Shown here one piece after another: positions 3,188 to 38,285 of a stretch of 42,169 nucleotides of DNA (the first letter of the stretch is position 1; the number at the start of each line of letters is the position of its first letter). The notes below the pieces were generated by a model. The model searched no databases. It saw only the letters and a program-made list of their open reading frames with translations, and had not been told where the DNA came from. This DNA is from a virus. Its lineage: Duplodnaviria; Heunggongvirae; Uroviricota; Caudoviricetes. The stretch is from the IMG/VR virus record IMGVR_UViG_2541047917_000006, positions 1 to 42,169 of that record, one strand, 5' to 3'. A program made the position numbers and the translations under genes.

Positions 3188-3372
3188 TAGGCAGCTCTCT
3201 CAATAACAAGCAATTCGTCGTAGTCATAATCAGTTTCGGAACCATCCGTACCGAACAGAGTCACTTTGTCATTTTCCATCCAAAAAGATTTAACCGCACA
3301 TTGTTGACCTTTAGATGTTATGAGCACATCACCAGGGATTACGTCTTCAGCGCGAACCTCTAGTGTTCTCAT
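3187..3372 (-). CDS. Hypothetical small protein, 61 aa
   Basis: ORF overlapping both neighbours by 1-4 nt, consistent with translational coupling. Confidence 0.5.
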   Translation of the reverse strand: MRTLEVRAEDVIPGDVLITSKGQQCAVKSFWMENDKVTLFGTDGSETDYDYDELLVIERAA

Positions 3373-3899
3373 CGTGCTGCCCCCTCTTTGGTGAAAATGC
3401 CTGCTGCAATGCTGTTTATGATGCTGTCAGTGCATGGAGTAGAAAGCTGGGCATCTCCAGCAATTTTCATGACCTCAACATCCGCATATCGAATACCGAG
3501 GTGTATCAGACCGGCTATACCTGACTTAAGTCGAACATTTTCCATAAACAGATCTTTTTCCCGCTGTTTAGCGGCTTCCAACTCCATCGACAATTTTTCC
3601 AACTGCTCTTTATGCTTCTTGTATTCCTGATACGCGTGCCAAGACTGACCTTTGCGCACACTATCAGTGATATCAGCAACCTGCTCCGGTGTTAGCGTGG
3701 TCAGTGGCTGTGCTGGAAAAATCATCACTTTCCCGGCATCCCAATCAAAACCCGCCTGAATTGACTGAACCTCAACTGATGGTGTTGAACCGATGCGACC
3801 AGGCGAATGAACAACGATCGTTACATCCATATCGCGACGATGGCTGTGGTTGTTGGACAAAATACGATTCACCAACTCAGAAAATTTGGAAAATTTCAT
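3369..3899 (-). CDS. Hypothetical protein, 176 aa
   Basis: Start reassigned to internal [10 protein letters not shown], whose ATG overlaps the upstream stop (ATGA); coiled-coil middle section. Confidence 0.6.
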
Positions 3900-4219
3900 G
3901 CTGATCCCTCTTTCTCTCCCCGGATAATTCTGTTGCACACATCCACACACTCGTCGCAGATGAAAACGGCGTCCCCAGCAATTAACTTTTTGACGGCGTA
4001 CTGGGATTTGTTGCAGAAGCTGCAACAAAGTGTTCGCCTGACTGATAAGGATGGAGCGCCAGATGTCAGCCGCTCCATATCGTTCTTGCGACGCAATATC
4101 ACACGGCTGAACTCAACCAGTTTCTCCGGGGATATCTCCTCCTCCGTAGCAAGCGCCTCTAATCGTTCGAGTATGTGGAAGGCTTTTTTCTGGGTAATTG
4201 CAGAATGCGATGTGGTCAT
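3896..4219 (-). CDS. ClpX-type C4 zinc-finger protein, 107 aa
   Basis: Start reassigned to MTTSHS, preceded by AAAGGAGAG. C-terminus [36 protein letters not shown] closely resembles the E. coli ClpX N-terminal zinc-binding domain (CSFCGKSQ...KLIAG...YICDECVDLCNDII). Confidence 0.75.
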
Positions 4220-4220
4220 C

Positions 4221-4709
4221 TCACTCTCCTTTGATGCGAATGCCAGCGGCGCGGGAATCATTCCATCGCTTTACTTCTTCACGAATTACGTCAATGCATT
4301 CTTTCGAATCCATTAGGTAATCTTCATCAAAAAGACGTTCCTGTTCGTTTTCTATCGCAACAATGATTGCTTCAACTAACTTTTGTGCCTGAGAATCACT
4401 TTCTAACTCTGCTATGCGCTTACTTCCATCCGAGATAACGCCCTCGTAATACTCACGCTGCTCGTTGAGTTTTGATTTTGCCAACTCCAGTTGTTTTGTT
4501 AGTTCCGCAATACGGCAAACATCGTTGATACGCGTTTCCTCTAATGCGTTGATCTCATCCAACAATGCCAGCGCGATATCTGGCGAAAAGTGCTTCATAA
4601 AATCGTTAAGCGCATTAATTCGCTGATCGAAAGGCATTACAGGTGCTTCACCAGCAATTTTTGTTTTTTCAGCGATTTCACGAAGCTTTTGATAATCAAT
4701 CTTGCTCAC
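4221..4709 (-). CDS. Hypothetical coiled-coil protein, 162 aa
   Basis: GTG start (VSKIDYQKL) six nt after AAGGAGG; the GTG overlaps the upstream TGA stop. Confidence 0.6.
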
Positions 4710-5251
4710 TGGCTGCCTCCTTTGCGAATCTGTTCCGCCCATTCTTCAAGGGATTTCTCCGCATATTCACCAGACAGGCCATCAATCGGATGCGCTTCAT
4801 TAACCAACTCTTCTTTCGCTGACAAAATCATGAGTGTAACGTCGAAAACTTCACGCAAAGGCTTATTGATAAATCCGTGATTGAACGCAGCAGCAAGACG
4901 GCTTGCGGTGTAGTTAATCCCCTCGTTGCGTGCCTCCGCACGTATTTCAGCCAGGAAAGCGTCGGTGGCTGGCATATTTCCTGTTGCCTTCATTGCCTCC
5001 AAAATAACCAGAACGCCATCTCGCCCAACTACCTCAGCGATAACCTCGGTGTTGTCGCCAACAACATCGCAGAATGCCTGAACTGCCTTACGAGCCAGCG
5101 CACTCTCCGCCGCCAGCGCCGCGCACTTGGCCTCCGCTTCAGCAAATTTACGCACCAGATATTCAGCGTTTGTTTCGTTAACCTTTAAATCTCGGGGGAT
5201 GCATTTCCCTTTCAGAAATCCATCCATCTCAATTAGTGACATTTGTTTCAT
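4706..5251 (-). CDS. Hypothetical protein, 181 aa (possibly Ea22-like)
   Basis: Start reassigned to [15 protein letters not shown]-overlapped with the upstream stop; the Ea22-like label is from memory only. Confidence 0.55.
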
Positions 5252-7359: not shown

Positions 7360-7395
7360 TTTATGCCAAAAATAAAGGCCGACTATGCGGCCTCG
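7360..7395 (-). terminator. Hairpin plus T-run at the 3-prime end of the 207-aa gene
   Basis: Inverted repeat aggccg...cggcct overlapping the stop codon, followed on the minus strand by a T-rich run; approximate coordinates. Confidence 0.4.
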
Positions 7396-8006
7396 GAAGG
7401 AAGTCCAATCATCTTATTCAAATCTTCTACCCGTAAAGCAGGAAGTGCTGTACTTGCTTTATCTGCTTCTTTTGGTAGTAACTCTTTGCTTTCAGGCCAA
7501 ACTTCAATAAGTCGCTTAACTGTTGTGACTGAGTTCAAAGCAGCCCATACATTTGATTCGATATCCTTTTTCTTGGCTTCAAGTTTTTTTTGCAATGCGC
7601 AGATTTCATCAAACCTTTTTGTTATTTCGTGTTCTGCGTCAAACATGCATTTATCTTTTTCTGGGGTGGGGAGCAATATATCTTCACCGTTGCCGCCTTT
7701 TCCGTATGAATGCCAGCCAACCCTTCTTCCAGATACAGTCAGATAAATCGAAGCAGAACGAACATCGTATGAGTAAAGTGAACATCCCATCTTTTCAAGT
7801 TCTTCACTTATAGCTGCCAACTTGGATGATAACTGATCCACTTCCTCAGTTTTCTTTTTACCGCCAAACGCAATAACTCTGGCGTCAAGTGCAAGCTGGT
7901 TCTTTAACTTTGTTACTTCTTCAAGTTCAGTGAAAACCCCAGACTTAATTAAAGCGTTACGAGCAATTTCCTCTTTCATTCTCGTAGTTAAGCGGATTGA
8001 TGACAT
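7383..8006 (-). CDS. Hypothetical protein, 207 aa, at the sieB/exclusion position
   Basis: Start reassigned to MSSIRLTTRMKEEI after GAGAGGAA; soluble, coiled-coil rich, no family recognised; sits between ral and cIII. Confidence 0.65.
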   Translation of the reverse strand: MSSIRLTTRMKEEIARNALIKSGVFTELEEVTKLKNQLALDARVIAFGGKKKTEEVDQLSSKLAAISEELEKMGCSLYSYDVRSASIYLTVSGRRVGWHSYGKGGNGEDILLPTPEKDKCMFDAEHEITKRFDEICALQKKLEAKKKDIESNVWAALNSVTTVKRLIEVWPESKELLPKEADKASTALPALRVEDLNKMIGLPSEAA

Positions 8007-8042
8007 ATTAATTCCTCTCAAATAAGAAAATAAAGGCCACCA

Positions 8043-8243
8043 TCAGGCAGCCTTGTTATTCTGTTTACCAAGTTCTCTGGCAATCATTGCCGTCGTTCGT
8101 ATTGCCCATTTATCGACATATTTCCCATCTTCCATTACAGGAAACATTTCTTCAGGCTTAACCATGCATTCCGATTGCAGCTTGCATCCATTGCATCGCT
8201 TGAATTGTCCACACCATTGATTTTTATCAATAGTCGTAGTCAT
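8043..8243 (-). CDS. ral: Restriction alleviation protein Ral
   Basis: 66-aa ORF MTTTIDKNQWCGQFKRCNGCKLQSECMVKPEEMF..., matches lambda Ral as I recall it. Confidence 0.85.
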   Translation of the reverse strand: MTTTIDKNQWCGQFKRCNGCKLQSECMVKPEEMFPVMEDGKYVDKWAIRTTAMIARELGKQNNKAA

Positions 8244-10768: not shown

Positions 10769-10915
10769 ATGACAAAACAACTCAGTCCTTACCAGGACAA
10801 AATTCACAAACACATACTACGTGATCGCTTCCTGTCCAGCTTCAAGCAGCCTGGTCGATTCCGGGCTGAGTTGGAAAAAGTGAAGCTGATGCAGAAGGAG
10901 AAAGGTCATGAGTAA
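10769..10915 (+). CDS. Candidate 48-aa small protein between cII and O
   Basis: ATG after AGGAG; below the ORF-track cutoff; overlaps the O start by 8 nt. Confidence 0.3.
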
Positions 10916-11807
10916 CATATCTAATCTAGCCGAAGCCAGAGAGGCCAGAAGGCTACAACAACCGCATCAAAGCAGCGGTAAGGGGTATGCCTTGCTGCAC
11001 CGTAAAATTATGGATGTGCCGTTTTACAAGGATGCAGAAGCAGCGCATCTGTGGGTTCACTTAATCCTCAAAGCAAAGCATACGCCTGAGTATGTAATGA
11101 CTGACGCAGGAGAAATTCTGGTAGGCAGAGGGAAGCTACTTGGCGGTAGAAACTCTCTGGCGTTTGAAACAGGACTCAAACCAGATCGCGTTCAGTACCT
11201 GCTTAGAAAGTTCAAAAAACTCGGCATGATTGACTGGGTTTCACACGGTAAATTCTCAGTTTTCTCGGTAGAGAAATATGACGATTATCAGTCAAATTTT
11301 GTACCAGCAGATTACCAGCAAATTACCACCTCAAAGCCAGCAATACCAATGCCTGTAAGCAATGCTGTACCAGCAGATTACCAGCAAATTACCACAGATA
11401 AAGAATATAATAATATTATCTCTAATACTGACGTATTAGAGAGTGCCACAGCAGACAAAAAGTCTGACAAGAAAAAACCTTCCGTCAGCTGTCAGGATGT
11501 TGTCGATGCTTACCACGAAATCCTTCCCGAAGCTCCAAGAATCCGCGCACTGAATGACAAGCGTAAAAACCAGATCCGAACGTTCTGGCGCAAAGCCGGA
11601 GTGATAACCCGCCAGCTTGACGGGCATGGGTTCACGATGCAGGACTGGAGAAATTATTTGAGCTACGTTGGCGAAAATTGCCGATGGATGTTCGAAGAGC
11701 GCCCAAACCATCAACGCGGAACCGTCTGGCACAAAAAGGGATTTGATTTCCTGCTTAACGATAATACCTACCTGAAAGTTCGTGAGGGTGAACACGATGA
11801 CCGATAA
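10908..11807 (+). CDS. Replication initiator, O-like (P22 gene 18 type)
   Basis: 299-aa ORF in the O position with an internal iteron-like duplication encoding [10 protein letters not shown] twice. Confidence 0.8.
11301..11395 (+). repeat. Iteron-like direct repeats (candidate ori) inside the O-like gene
   Basis: 29-bp sequence gtaccagcagattaccagcaaattaccac occurs twice about 66 bp apart, with internal ATTACCA sub-repeats. Confidence 0.6.
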
Positions 11808-34786: not shown

Positions 34787-35160
34787 ACCAACCTCCTTAG
34801 TTTTGAGCAGGATACCAGATGATACTGTATTGGTGGAGTGGTGTGTGAAAACGTGTCAACGACAAACCATCCACAACTTGGACGAATGATTTAGCAAAAA
34901 GTGCTATTTTTGGTGTTTAGTGTCATAGAAAAGTGAATAGCTCACTTTTCAACATTGCATGAAACTTGCAGGAAATGTGACATTACCTTATAGGTAACTT
35001 CGGCGAAAATGCAGTAAATGTGAAACGTAATGGTTTAAACATGTCGCTAAAGTGGTTGTAAGTTAGCCTCCGAAGGATTGCTGATAGCTTTGTTATAGTA
35101 TTAAATGACATTTGACATAGTTGGATACTTAGCTGTGGCTATCAAGATGGAGGTGTGTTC

Positions 35161-35604
35161 ATGCTTACTTGTTTTGATGTCGCCGACTACTTCCTGTCGC
35201 GGTGTGACGAGGATAGCGGTGACACAATCTCTAATTTAAAATTACAAAAGCTTGTTTACTATGCTCAGGGTTTTTCATTGGCGTTGCTTGGCGAGCCTCT
35301 TTTTCAGAATAAGATGGAAGCTTGGATGCATGGCCCTGTTGTCCCTGAGCTTTATCGCCGTTATAAACAATATGGTAATGGCGCTATCCCTTCTCCAGAG
35401 TCTTTTGATGCTGAAAAATTCAGCGAAGAACAGTTAGAGCTATTAGAAGAAGTCTGGGATGTTTTTGGGCAATTTTCTGCCTGGAAACTGAGGAACATGA
35501 CACACGAAGAGTCACCATGGAGATCAAACTATATTGAGGGTGTTGGTGGTTCTGAAATTAGCTCTAAGGAGATGGCAGAGTACTTTGCAACTCGGATTAA
35601 CTAA
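35161..35604 (+). CDS. Panacea-domain (DUF4065) protein, PanA/SocA-like antitoxin candidate
   Basis: ATG after GGAGGTG; CFDVADYFL...ISNLKLQKLVYYAQGFSLALLGEPLF...EAWMHGPVVPELYRRYK fits the DUF4065 consensus as I recall it. Confidence 0.7.
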   Translation: MLTCFDVADYFLSRCDEDSGDTISNLKLQKLVYYAQGFSLALLGEPLFQNKMEAWMHGPVVPELYRRYKQYGNGAIPSPESFDAEKFSEEQLELLEEVWDVFGQFSAWKLRNMTHEESPWRSNYIEGVGGSEISSKEMAEYFATRIN

Positions 35605-35608
35605 CGAG

Positions 35609-36028
35609 ATGGCAAGAAAATCTAAAAGGATTATCCCCCCTGCTGAATCTACAGGTAAGTTAAAGTTAGGGCCGCAGTCAGGGGGGAATTCAGATCAAAA
35701 GAAACCGAAATTTTCATTCTGTTACATCCAAAGCTCTCACTGCATAACGAAATGCCAAAAAGATGAGAAAGCTGGCTTAGCTGATAAATTATACAGATTA
35801 AGTCAACTAACATGGGCAGAGATTAAGCAGCAAGGTAGGCATAAGCTTGGATTTGAGAAGATTGCAAGGGGTGCGATTAAAGCAGGTATCCCCAGTCATA
35901 TAACGGAAGACGTAGATCATTTCTTGGCTTTTAGATTTGATGATTTGAAAGCCATGGTTGGTTATCGTCTTGGATCGACATTTTTTGTTATATGGCTTGA
36001 TAGAGAGTTCAACCTATACAAGCACTAA
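35609..36028 (+). CDS. Unrecognised 139-aa partner of the Panacea-domain gene (toxin candidate)
   Basis: Start MARKSKR five nt after the upstream stop; Lys-rich N-terminus with C-x5-C-x3-C; beta-rich C-terminus ...GSTFFVIWLDREFNLYKH; followed by a strong terminator. Confidence 0.6.
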   Translation: MARKSKRIIPPAESTGKLKLGPQSGGNSDQKKPKFSFCYIQSSHCITKCQKDEKAGLADKLYRLSQLTWAEIKQQGRHKLGFEKIARGAIKAGIPSHITEDVDHFLAFRFDDLKAMVGYRLGSTFFVIWLDREFNLYKH

Positions 36029-36080: not shown

Positions 36081-36617
36081 TCAAACAACCCACCAGTTTG
36101 CCTGATTGGATGCCAGCCTTGCAGTTTTTATGGAATTAATTATGCCATGCTCAAGAGCCTTGTTAGCATCCAAAATGGTCGAGTCTGCTATCAGGGATGC
36201 CCACCTAATATGGGTTCCGATGTCGATATTGAACGTCTCAACGAAGCGATCAAGATCGTTATCGAGGCATTTCCCGTACTCTCTCAATCTGGCATGGTCG
36301 GCGGCTGGGGTGGCAAAGCCCCATAATAGAGGATGTAACAGGAATCTTGATAATGGGTTTGCGAAACGTTCTGAGCCAGCCAGGAAAACGATATTAGCTA
36401 TGGATTCAACATTGCTTATGTTGTGAGTTCTAACGGTAACAGGGAGTGACTTAAGAAAGTTATACGCAGTAAAGCCAGCGGCAGTTTCCCCTCCCTGACT
36501 TGATATATGGATATTTAATTCAGTTGCGCCCTGAGATAATGCGGTGAGACAGTGGTTCTGAAGTTGCCCAACAGTGGCAGTGTTAACGGGGCATAAGAAA
36601 TGAATTGTGTGCAGCAT
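36081..36617 (-). CDS. ClpP-fold serine protease-like protein, 178 aa
   Basis: ELNIHISSQGGETAAGFTAYNFLKSLPVTVRTHNISNVESIANIVFLAGSERFANPLSRFLLHPL aligns by eye with E. coli ClpP ([67 protein letters not shown]), including the Ser and His positions; start ATG overlaps the Mnt-like stop (TAATG). Confidence 0.65.
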   Translation of the reverse strand: MLHTIHFLCPVNTATVGQLQNHCLTALSQGATELNIHISSQGGETAAGFTAYNFLKSLPVTVRTHNISNVESIANIVFLAGSERFANPLSRFLLHPLLWGFATPAADHARLREYGKCLDNDLDRFVETFNIDIGTHIRWASLIADSTILDANKALEHGIINSIKTARLASNQANWWVV

Positions 36618-36865
36618 TATTTTTCATCCTTACCATACATGGTCTTTAGCGTCTCAAGCAGCGCCTCTTTGAATTTGTCAGCTTCTTGCTGAGCAAATGA
36701 CTCAACTGACTTTGGCGACCTATCTTCATCAATCGCGGCTTGCAAAATCATGACGATCTCGGAGTTAACAGAGCGACCATTTTTTGATGCTCTGACAGAA
36801 AGAGCCTCGCGTAAAGATTCAGGGATTCTTACCGTAGTTGGAGAAATTGACACACCCTTTGCCAT
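36617..36865 (-). CDS. mnt: Mnt-like ribbon-helix-helix repressor, 82 aa
   Basis: NGRSVNSEI motif and overall similarity to P22 Mnt (...ANGRSMNSEL...); same size as P22 Mnt; divergent from the arc-ant operon. Confidence 0.8.
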   Translation of the reverse strand: MAKGVSISPTTVRIPESLREALSVRASKNGRSVNSEIVMILQAAIDEDRSPKSVESFAQQEADKFKEALLETLKTMYGKDEK

Positions 36866-36979
36866 ATCACACCTTTGGTATTCAATTTGATATCAAAGTG
36901 TATGCAAAAAAATTTTGACTAGATATACTCACTTTGCTATCTTTTGTATTCGGAAAGAGTTGTTTGTGGGGAGGGTAAC

Positions 36980-37132
36980 ATGGAGAAAGAAATAAGTAAG
37001 ATTTTGGTAAGGATGCCGCAGTCGTTAAAGGATGCTATCGGTAGCAGGGCAAAGGAAGAGTGCAGGTCGTTTAACTCAGAGGTTATCAAGCGCCTGATAG
37101 ACAGCCTGAAGAGAGAGGGGGTAGTGGTATGA
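36980..37132 (+). CDS. arc: Arc-like ribbon-helix-helix repressor, 50 aa
   Basis: Start reassigned to MEKEISKILVRMPQSLKDAIGSRAKEECRSFNSEV, parallels P22 Arc (FNLRWPREVLDLVRKVAEENGRSVNSEI). Confidence 0.75.
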   Translation: MEKEISKILVRMPQSLKDAIGSRAKEECRSFNSEVIKRLIDSLKREGVVV

Positions 37133-37320
37133 AAAACCGCAGATGTTGTTTTTGTGGGTGTAGTAAAGAAACGACTGGAAGGGGCTTTGTTGTGTCAAAA
37201 AATACCGAAGAAGCAATTTGTGACTCATGCGTTACAGATATTGTTATTTTCATGCATGGCGAGAAGGGGTTAGATGAAAAGCTAGAGAGTATTCCAGTTG
37301 AAGGCGCTGATAAAAGTTGA
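37129..37320 (+). CDS. Small Cys-rich protein with ClpX-zinc-finger-like motif, 63 aa
   Basis: ATG overlaps the arc stop (ATGA) after [17 protein letters not shown]...AICDSCV resembles the ClpX zinc-binding domain C-x2-C...C-x2-C pattern. Confidence 0.6.
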
Positions 37321-37382
37321 AGCCCCAACTGCTGGAACAGTCAGGGCTTCGGTTGTCGGTAAATCCGTGGAGAAAAACCAAC

Positions 37383-38285
37383 ATGAATAGTATAGCAATT
37401 TTAGAAGCAGTGAACACCTCTTACGTGCCTTTCAATGGTCAGCATATTTTAACCGCTGTGGCTGCCGGAGTGACTTATGTAGCGATGCGTCAAATTGTGG
37501 AAAACATTGGTATAGACTGGACTGGTCAATCTGTTAAGTTGCGTAAAATGAAGGACAAATTCAACTGTAGAGATATCTCTATGGTTGCCGCTGATGGCAA
37601 GTTACGTAAGCTTTTATGCATACCGCTGAAGAAACTCAATGGATGGCTGTTCAGCATCAACCCTGAGAAAGTTCGAGCTGACATCCGCGATAAACTGATT
37701 CAGTACCAGGAAGAATGCTTTACTGTGCTGCATGACTACTGGACGAAGGGAAAGGCAGAAAATGCACGTAAGAAAACATCTGTTGATGACAGGACTCCGC
37801 TTCGTGATGCTGTAAATATGCTGGTCAGCAAAAAGCATCTAATGTACCCAGAAGCTTATGCAATGATTCATCAGCGTTTCAATGTGGAAAGTATTGAAGA
37901 GCTTGATGCATCTCAGATACCGCAAGCAGTAGAGTACATCCACAGGGTAGTGCTTGAAGGTGAGTTCATCGGCAAACAAGAGAAGAAAGCAAACGAGCTT
38001 TCTGCAAAAGAAGCAAACAGCCTTGTATGGTTATGGGATTATGCCAACCGTTCACAGGCATTATTCCGCGAACTGTATCCGGCGCTGAAACAAATTCAAT
38101 CGAACTATTCCGGCAGATGCTACGACTACGGTCATGAATTCTCGTATGTTATCGGAATGGCGAGAGACGTTTTAATAAACCACACACGAGATGTTGATAT
38201 TAATGAGCCAGACGGACCAACGAATCTTTCCGCATGGATGAGACTTAAGAATAAAGAATTACCTCCTTCAGTACATAACTACTGA
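37383..38285 (+). CDS. ant: Antirepressor Ant, 300 aa
   Basis: Start reassigned to [30 protein letters not shown]; size and position match P22 Ant downstream of arc. Confidence 0.8.

Follow-up and report, generated by a model that had tools for sequence, protein, structure and literature searches.

The 42,169-nt stretch of DNA analysed here (the window; positions 1 to 42,169 of IMG/VR record IMGVR_UViG_2541047917_000006) derives from a HK620/P22-like temperate podophage of Escherichia coli, and near its left end it carries a minus-strand gene of 107 amino acids (aa) at 3896..4219, in which a conserved N-terminal two-helix hairpin is joined by a linker to a ClpX-type zinc-binding domain (ZBD) at the C-terminus. 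The coding sequence was delimited on the basis of the open reading frame (ORF) list, Pfam family PF06689, PHROG 6797 and identical annotated coding sequences, with the ATG start codon at 4219..4217 and the TGA stop codon at 3898..3896. The gene is part of the delayed-early leftward (pL) “ea” operon and is translationally chained on both sides. A Shine-Dalgarno sequence AGGAG (4226..4230, minus strand) precedes the ATG with a 6-nt spacer, the TGA of the upstream gene (4223..4221) lies between the two, 1 nt ahead of the ATG, and the stop codon overlaps the start codon of the downstream gene in an ATGA junction at 3899..3896. The coordinates, strand and length given in a preliminary description of the locus were confirmed from the ORF list and the sequence, and the same holds for its placement of the gene in an early-left chain of stop/start-overlapped genes.

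Two other readings of the same region found no support. A longer, 121-aa version starting from 4261 overlaps the upstream gene, the PHROG 6797 profile covers only residues 15-120 of it, and the RefSeq coding sequence has 107 aa. An antisense ORF of 169 aa (3807..4316, plus strand) spans the whole gene; it is unsupported and best taken as a shadow, the minus strand being identified as the coding strand of 3896..4219 by the pattern of conservation and of the ratio of nonsynonymous to synonymous substitutions (dN/dS) described below.

The ZBD comprises residues 64-100 (3920..4030, minus strand), as located by Pfam, phmmer against the PDB, Foldseek and a column table against E. coli ClpX. The only Pfam match on the 107-aa protein was zf-C4_ClpX (PF06689), with 57.4 bits against a cut-off of 27 and an E-value of 1.3e-15, covering residues 65-100 and profile positions 2-38 of 39. 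The top phmmer matches in the PDB were the E. coli ClpX ZBD structures 2ds5 and 1ovx (E-value 1e-14), and identity to the E. coli domain amounted to 28/41 positions (68%), or 71% in the structural overlay. The domain search thus recovered the C-terminal ClpX ZBD that the preliminary description had proposed. Four cysteines arranged as CxxC-x18-CxxC are the zinc ligands predicted from the ClpX alignment, i.e. C66 (4022..4024), C69 (4013..4015), C88 (3956..3958) and C91 (3947..3949) on the minus strand, and they are invariant in 27/27 family members and in three P2-like homologues. In an AlphaFold2 model built from the 27 family members, the mean predicted local distance difference test score (pLDDT) was 74, with values of 77-86 across the ZBD. 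The predicted ZBD has the expected fold of beta-hairpins and a C-terminal helix around the zinc site, and was overlaid by Foldseek on 2ds5, 2ds6, 2ds7 and 2ds8, the last of these being the ZBD-XB complex, at 0.5-0.6 Å over 38 residues.

No AAA+ module, with its Walker motifs, pore loops and ClpP-docking IGF loop, is present, as had also been noted earlier, and the protein ends seven residues past the ZBD. Against the NCBIfam and PRK equivalogs of ClpX (TIGR00382 and PRK05342) it scored 41.6 and 39.3 bits, where the cut-offs are 359 and 371, and only positions 4-48 were matched. By score, cysteines and predicted fold, the 107-aa protein is a genuine member of PF06689 and not a ClpX.

The hairpin occupies residues 10-52 (4064..4192, minus strand; helices at residues 10-26 and 31-52) and was modelled with pLDDT values of about 80-86. 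It is followed by a flexible, fast-evolving linker (residues 53-63; 4031..4063, minus strand), in which pLDDT falls below 50 at residues 56-61 and which varies in length and sequence across the family. Invariant hairpin residues are R19, L20, E21, L23, T25, E26, E27, I29, L34, R44, K45, D47 and L51. The N-terminal region had been called novel; it has indeed no assigned Pfam family, but it is a conserved hairpin already clustered in PHROG 6797. Searching 1.84 billion representatives with the hairpin alone (phmmer) returned essentially only more hairpin-ZBD proteins, with 40-46% hairpin identity, and the distant relatives always carry the hairpin fused to a ZBD. A match of the hairpin (4034..4219) in three stretches to a 650-aa eukaryote-like protein with Ubl and BAG repeats (E-value 5.8e-5) is probably an artefact of helical composition, because the phage protein has no BAG match in Pfam.

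Both modules are under purifying selection. In pairwise Nei-Gojobori comparison of 16 distinct coding sequences, the hairpin had a median dN/dS of 0.24, against 0.58 in the ZBD and 0.92 in the linker; these values are indicative only, as they come from short segments with few substitutions. From this pattern the gene appears to be real and selected, with the hairpin at least as important as the ZBD.

Full-length relatives are confined to temperate mobile elements of Escherichia and Salmonella, where the hairpin-ZBD architecture is common to four unrelated types of temperate phage. Lambdoid and P22-like prophages contributed 35 IMG/VR loci, and family members were present in the SSU5-like phage-plasmids PhiR41_1, CMS-2020a and p09EL50 of O104:H4. 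The P1-like phage D6 has a homologue of 86% identity, and P2-like prophages have homologues of about 50% identity (P88 gp19, P0121 and P0127). Near-identical full-length DNA was found in 110/5426 complete E. coli genomes (about 2%), in chromosomes and in plasmids of about 106-111 kb, and a full-length copy in only eight of 50,697 phage records. The GTDB representatives, with one genome per species, contained no relative, and the family is therefore sporadic and of strain level. Compared with clpX of E. coli K-12, the ZBD has 63% nucleotide, 46% third-codon-position and 68% protein identity. The first two values rule out a recent capture from host clpX, and since identity is 68% in the protein against 46% at third positions, the ClpX-like sequence appears to have been held by selection long after capture.

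Neither the protein nor its domain name is new to the databases. RefSeq holds an identical protein as WP_000213528.1, for which PGAP uses the name “ClpX C4-type zinc finger protein”. The protein matches PHROG 6797 with an E-value of 4.5e-58, and both chromosomes and phage-plasmids of E. coli contain identical annotated coding sequences. In many records of GenBank and in older ones of RefSeq, including those of phages P88 and D6, the product is given as “carboxylate--amine ligase”, a mis-annotation unsupported by the sequence. Full-text literature searches returned no paper on the hairpin-ZBD protein or on any free-standing phage ZBD; the new part would be the function, i.e. a viral mimic of a protease recognition domain.

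The gene directly upstream (4221..4742, minus strand) is Ead/Ea22-like (Pfam Ead_Ea22, E-value 8.4e-14). Downstream lies a gene of 176 aa (3369..3899, minus strand), which encodes an N-domain of about 120 aa (PHROG 6026), then a coiled coil resembling that of Ea22, and ends in a mosaic C-terminus. The PHROG 6026 N-domain stands directly downstream of the ZBD gene, with the ATGA overlap, in 32/39 loci, and other genes take this place in D6, in the P2-like phages and in three IMG/VR loci (L024, L028 and L032). With at least 364 clusters, the N-domain family far outnumbers that of the ZBD, and in most cases no ZBD gene stands upstream of it; the gene ahead of its commonest member encodes an unrelated, signal-peptide-like protein of 136 aa. 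A two-gene module of the ZBD gene and its downstream neighbour was rejected on account of the larger size of the N-domain family, of this other upstream gene, and of the exceptions at D6, the P2-like phages and the three loci. The linkage reflects a shared insertion site, and the PHROG 6026 gene is a frequent, not an obligate, neighbour. The consistent company is that of Ead/Ea22-like genes, even within the P2-like hotspot, and the Ead_Ea22 signature (PF13935) is carried by the neighbours only, with no Pfam match to it in the ZBD protein itself.

Such company suits an explanation independent of ClpX, in which the ZBD would be a zinc-stabilised dimerisation or peptide-binding module of a regulator of the exo-xis/ea region, acting for instance on the lysis-lysogeny decision together with Ea22-like proteins. 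Ea22 has been reported to be pro-lysogenic and oligomeric, with a host ligand that is not known (PMC7093339, PMC10834534), and a regulator of this kind would fit a hairpin more tightly constrained than the ZBD. The downstream gene of Ea22 type is, however, no obligate partner, and 68-71% identity in the ZBD despite near-saturated synonymous sites, with F16 (ClpX literature numbering) kept, exceeds what a generic zinc scaffold would need. This explanation is considered rather unlikely; a second gene in the same genome also bears on it.

That gene encodes 63 aa (37129..37320, plus strand) and is chained by start and stop codons between an Arc-like gene (36944..37132) and the antirepressor gene ant (37317..38285). 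Its product has a CxxC-x21-CxxC arrangement (C6, C9, C31 and C34), and its only Pfam match was zf-C4_ClpX, below threshold with an E-value of 0.2. The top sequence match in the PDB was the N-terminus of Neisseria meningitidis ClpX (E-value 0.028), and hhalign aligned the protein with the columns that form the ZBD in the main family (E-value 7e-4, probability 26%). Foldseek matched its AlphaFold2 model best to 2ds5_A, with a probability of 0.98 and a template modelling score of 0.75, at 1.5 Å over 41 columns. These four weak lines agree in pointing to another, divergent protein of the ClpX-ZBD-like kind in this phage. Its family is a rare one, with 3 clusters, and the position from arc to ant is kept in five other P22-like prophage contexts. 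A divergent ZBD-like protein fixed between arc and ant would show reuse of the fold in regulatory contexts, which again speaks for the ClpX-independent explanation.

A ClpP-family gene of 178 aa lies close by (36081..36617, minus strand; Pfam CLP_protease, E-value 4.3e-12; PHROG 94, “head maturation protease”), chained directly behind a Mnt-like ribbon-helix-helix repressor gene (36617..36865) in the immunity and accessory region. It is outside the head module, a P22-type phage should not need a prohead protease, and Ser and His motifs resembling those of ClpP were recognised by eye. The gene is not conserved beside the 63-aa gene elsewhere, and a functional tie to the ZBD genes is unsupported, as it is absent at other loci bearing either of them.

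In three independent P2-like prophages, the hairpin-ZBD gene is located between gpA (replication) and gpQ (portal), and in one of these (L042/L043) it is nearly the sole cargo of the interval. The gene thus sits at the gpA-gpQ hotspot in P2-like prophages and in the pL ea chain in the window. Since the gpA-gpQ interval is a hotspot for anti-phage systems (PMC9122126, PMC13586616), a prophage accessory function in exclusion or defence was also weighed, by which the protein would guard the lysogen or the infected cell, e.g. by stabilising or destabilising a factor controlled by ClpXP. These hotspots hold non-defence cargo too, and the lambdoid copies belong to the early chain of pL, a chain that is silent in the lysogen. 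Neither the ZBD protein nor either of its neighbours had a match in PADLOC-DB v2 at an E-value of ≤0.1, so that membership in a catalogued defence system was dropped. Consensus scans of the window and of one P2-like locus detected no promoter-like site near the gene, nor any internal promoter that would give moron-like expression, and the orientation is the same as that of the early replication genes. A defence role is regarded as very improbable.

The positions that the family shares with ClpX also bear on function. In ClpX literature numbering, C14, F16, C17, G30, I35, C36, C39, V40 and C43 are invariant in 27/27 members, and the I46 position is aliphatic (V, I or L) in 25/27 members and A or G in two. 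In ClpX, the ZBD dimer forms the platform to which SspB, RssB, trigger factor and lambda-O-type substrates dock (PMC7804408, PMC7226468), and F16 and I46 belong to its hydrophobic side pocket, which overlaps the sites of lambda O, trigger factor and SspB/RssB (PMC7804408); the comparison of the docking pocket covered these two residues, as taken from that paper. Moreover, ClpX ZBD isolated and supplied in trans inhibits the breakdown of sigma-S that RssB mediates, at 5-20 µM against 0.6 µM ClpXP (PMC7226468), and ZBD(1-52) alone binds XB peptides with a dissociation constant of 35-82 nM (PMC12373786).

By analogy with these fragments, the hairpin-ZBD protein may be a decoy of the ClpX N-domain that sequesters ZBD-docking adaptors and substrates. 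We tentatively favour this explanation as the best available, while giving it somewhat less than an even chance; the invariance of F16, the aliphatic I46 position in 25/27 members and the published behaviour of free ZBD make it plausible. The copied domain is, in ClpX, the docking place of SspB, RssB, UmuD, lambda-O-type substrates and trigger factor; here it is carried by a protein that has no ATPase ring and would be incapable of unfolding. That it would bind zinc, dimerise, bind ligands and have any effect on ClpXP is inferred, as is every step beyond its identity as a ZBD. Expression would be early: in lambdoid phages it would come from the leftward operon once the cell is infected or the prophage induced, and in P2-like phages the gene follows those for replication. 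The decoy would then bind proteins or tails that dock on the ClpX N-domain, by which N-domain-dependent degradation by ClpXP would be selectively blocked, and substrates recognised by the pore, e.g. bare ssrA tags, would be largely spared. The hairpin could raise avidity by further oligomerisation, or make the protein specific for one target.

Several points weigh against a decoy. Constraint on the hairpin exceeds that on the ZBD, which a pure free-ZBD decoy leaves unexplained, although the segmental dN/dS values behind this comparison carry the limit given with them. The surface of the ZBD drifts within the family, with P31 changed to D or E, position 42 being V, A, L or D, and position 45 free. 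As the published inhibition needed 5-20 µM ZBD against 0.6 µM ClpXP, a decoy would have to be abundant or of higher avidity. Finally, no benefiting target is identified, as the phage is without a recognisable lambda O. The preliminary description had reasoned from lambda-O-type substrates, but the replication genes of this phage are that of a 299-aa initiator (10908..11807), which gave no lambda-O match in Pfam, and that of a DnaB-like helicase, and protection of lambda O was abandoned as a rationale here.

A related possibility keeps ClpX as the partner and gives the hairpin the active part. The phage ZBD would pair with the ClpX N-domain in a mixed dimer, or otherwise dock on the enzyme, and the hairpin, positioned at the entrance of the machine, would block the pore or, like an adaptor, recruit a specific host or phage protein for degradation. 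In ClpX the ZBD dimerises constitutively (PMC7226468, PMC7804408), all members of the phage family keep the core positions that they have in common with ClpX, and synthetic bridging peptides (CLIPPERs) that link a target to the ZBD suffice for degradation by ClpXP (PMC12373786). Docking would also account for a second, highly conserved module on a flexible linker. Mixed pairing would, however, call for subunit exchange between ZBD dimers and assembled ClpX, for which there is no evidence, and the hairpin is without a known partner. P31 and Y34, conserved in enterobacterial ClpX, give way in the lambdoid branch to D or E and to F or C, respectively, which could favour self-pairing over mixed pairing. 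Docking of this kind is judged unlikely.

The remainder of the genome follows the layout of the HK620/P22-like phages. At the left end of the window, integrase and Xis are followed by the ea-region chain and then by Abc2, Erf, a Nmad5-domain protein and Ral. Beyond Ral are a cI-like S24 repressor, CII, the initiator, the DnaB-like helicase and the Nin genes, after which come the P22-type portal, terminase, ejection proteins and tailspike. The Nmad5 gene (7383..8021, minus strand; E-value 8.5e-71) adjoins that of the Ral antirestriction protein (8043..8243, minus strand; E-value 1.6e-48), both in the pL operon. Alleviation of EcoKI restriction is reported to run via ClpXP (PMC11109961), which may be a link to a ClpX-directed factor of the same operon.

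A Mutator-family transposase gene of an insertion sequence (38379..39587, plus strand; PF00872, E-value 1.2e-118) occupies the interval from ant to the tailspike gene. A gene for a Panacea/SocA-type antitoxin domain protein (35155..35604, plus strand; PF13274, E-value 1.9e-24), situated between the ejection-protein genes and immI, overlaps a gene of 164 aa (35534..36028, plus strand; PHROG 8366), which had a weak PADLOC match to NsnC (9.5e-6). Together, 35155..36028 is likely to be a PanA-type toxin-antitoxin pair. In Caulobacter, SocA is a ClpXP adaptor for its toxin.

Taken more widely, the material raises the prospect that temperate enterobacterial phages captured the docking domain of ClpX as a mobile mimic, serving as an anti-adaptor or retargeting factor in early lytic growth, and the arc-ant protein would make mimicry of the ZBD recurrent; this wider claim is rather doubtful at present. 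Sigma-S, SOS proteins, replication initiators, antitoxins and restriction alleviation are under ClpXP control, and each has a bearing on phage development and on defence by abortive infection; a mimic could shield a phage protein or block the protease-triggered activation of a toxin or defence. It would represent a new mode of viral interference, by mimicry of the recognition domain instead of a pseudo-substrate or an active-site blocker, and would offer a selective tool by which ClpXP degradation that depends on the N-domain could be told apart in vivo from that which depends on the pore. If the protein is unrelated to ClpX in function, the ZBD fold would have been reused as a generic module of phage regulators, and a defined member would be added to the poorly understood exo-xis/ea region. 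In either case the gene is a common one, counting the complete E. coli genomes that carry it (about 2%) and the phage-plasmid of O104:H4 strains.

Among known systems, the ZBD of E. coli ClpX is the homologous one, 68-71% identical, with the same four cysteines, a predicted fold at 0.5 Å and F16 kept. The phage copy differs in being without the AAA+ ring and in its C-terminal position behind the hairpin, and in the lambdoid branch also at P31 (D/E) and Y34 (F/C). Other free-standing ZBD proteins (a ZBD with a second C4 ribbon, with a C-terminal extension, or with a transmembrane segment) share the presence of PF06689 without the AAA+ module, but their ZBD is usually N-terminal and they have no hairpin; we know of no characterised member among them. 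Many short ZBD matches in genomes and metagenomes are truncated or frameshifted clpX.

Phage modulators of host AAA+ proteases include lambda RexB (Clp), lambda CIII (FtsH), and T4 PinA and T7 Gp4.5 (Lon), which are small early or accessory proteins proposed or shown to blunt the host protease and thereby to stabilise phage proteins or prevent protease-triggered toxin activation. They have no sequence relationship to the hairpin-ZBD protein, whose only Pfam match is the ZBD, and to our knowledge none of the four copies the recognition domain of the protease itself. Detached paralogues of Clp N-domains are the mycobacterial ClpC2, a decoy for ClpC1-targeting antibiotics, and the plastid ClpT. 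By analogy, the phage protein may likewise be a detached N-terminal recognition domain working as a sponge or regulator in trans, but ClpC2 and ClpT have a Clp_N repeat instead of a ZBD, are cellular and not viral, and have other ligands. The RssB anti-adaptors IraD, IraM and IraP would share the outcome, i.e. blocked delivery to ClpXP, and the ZBD docking site of RssB has been proposed to overlap the IraD site (PMC7226468). They show no homology to the phage protein and bind the adaptor through unrelated folds.

The proposed function would most resemble that of the laboratory ClpX ZBD fragment, which is likewise a ZBD free of the motor (PMC7226468, PMC12373786; Wojtyra et al. 2003 via PMC7804408). 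The fragment is dimeric, has XB peptides and RssB among its ligands and acts as a competitive inhibitor of adaptor-mediated degradation, whereas the phage protein is a natural, selected gene product with an extra conserved module and a putative activity of this kind.

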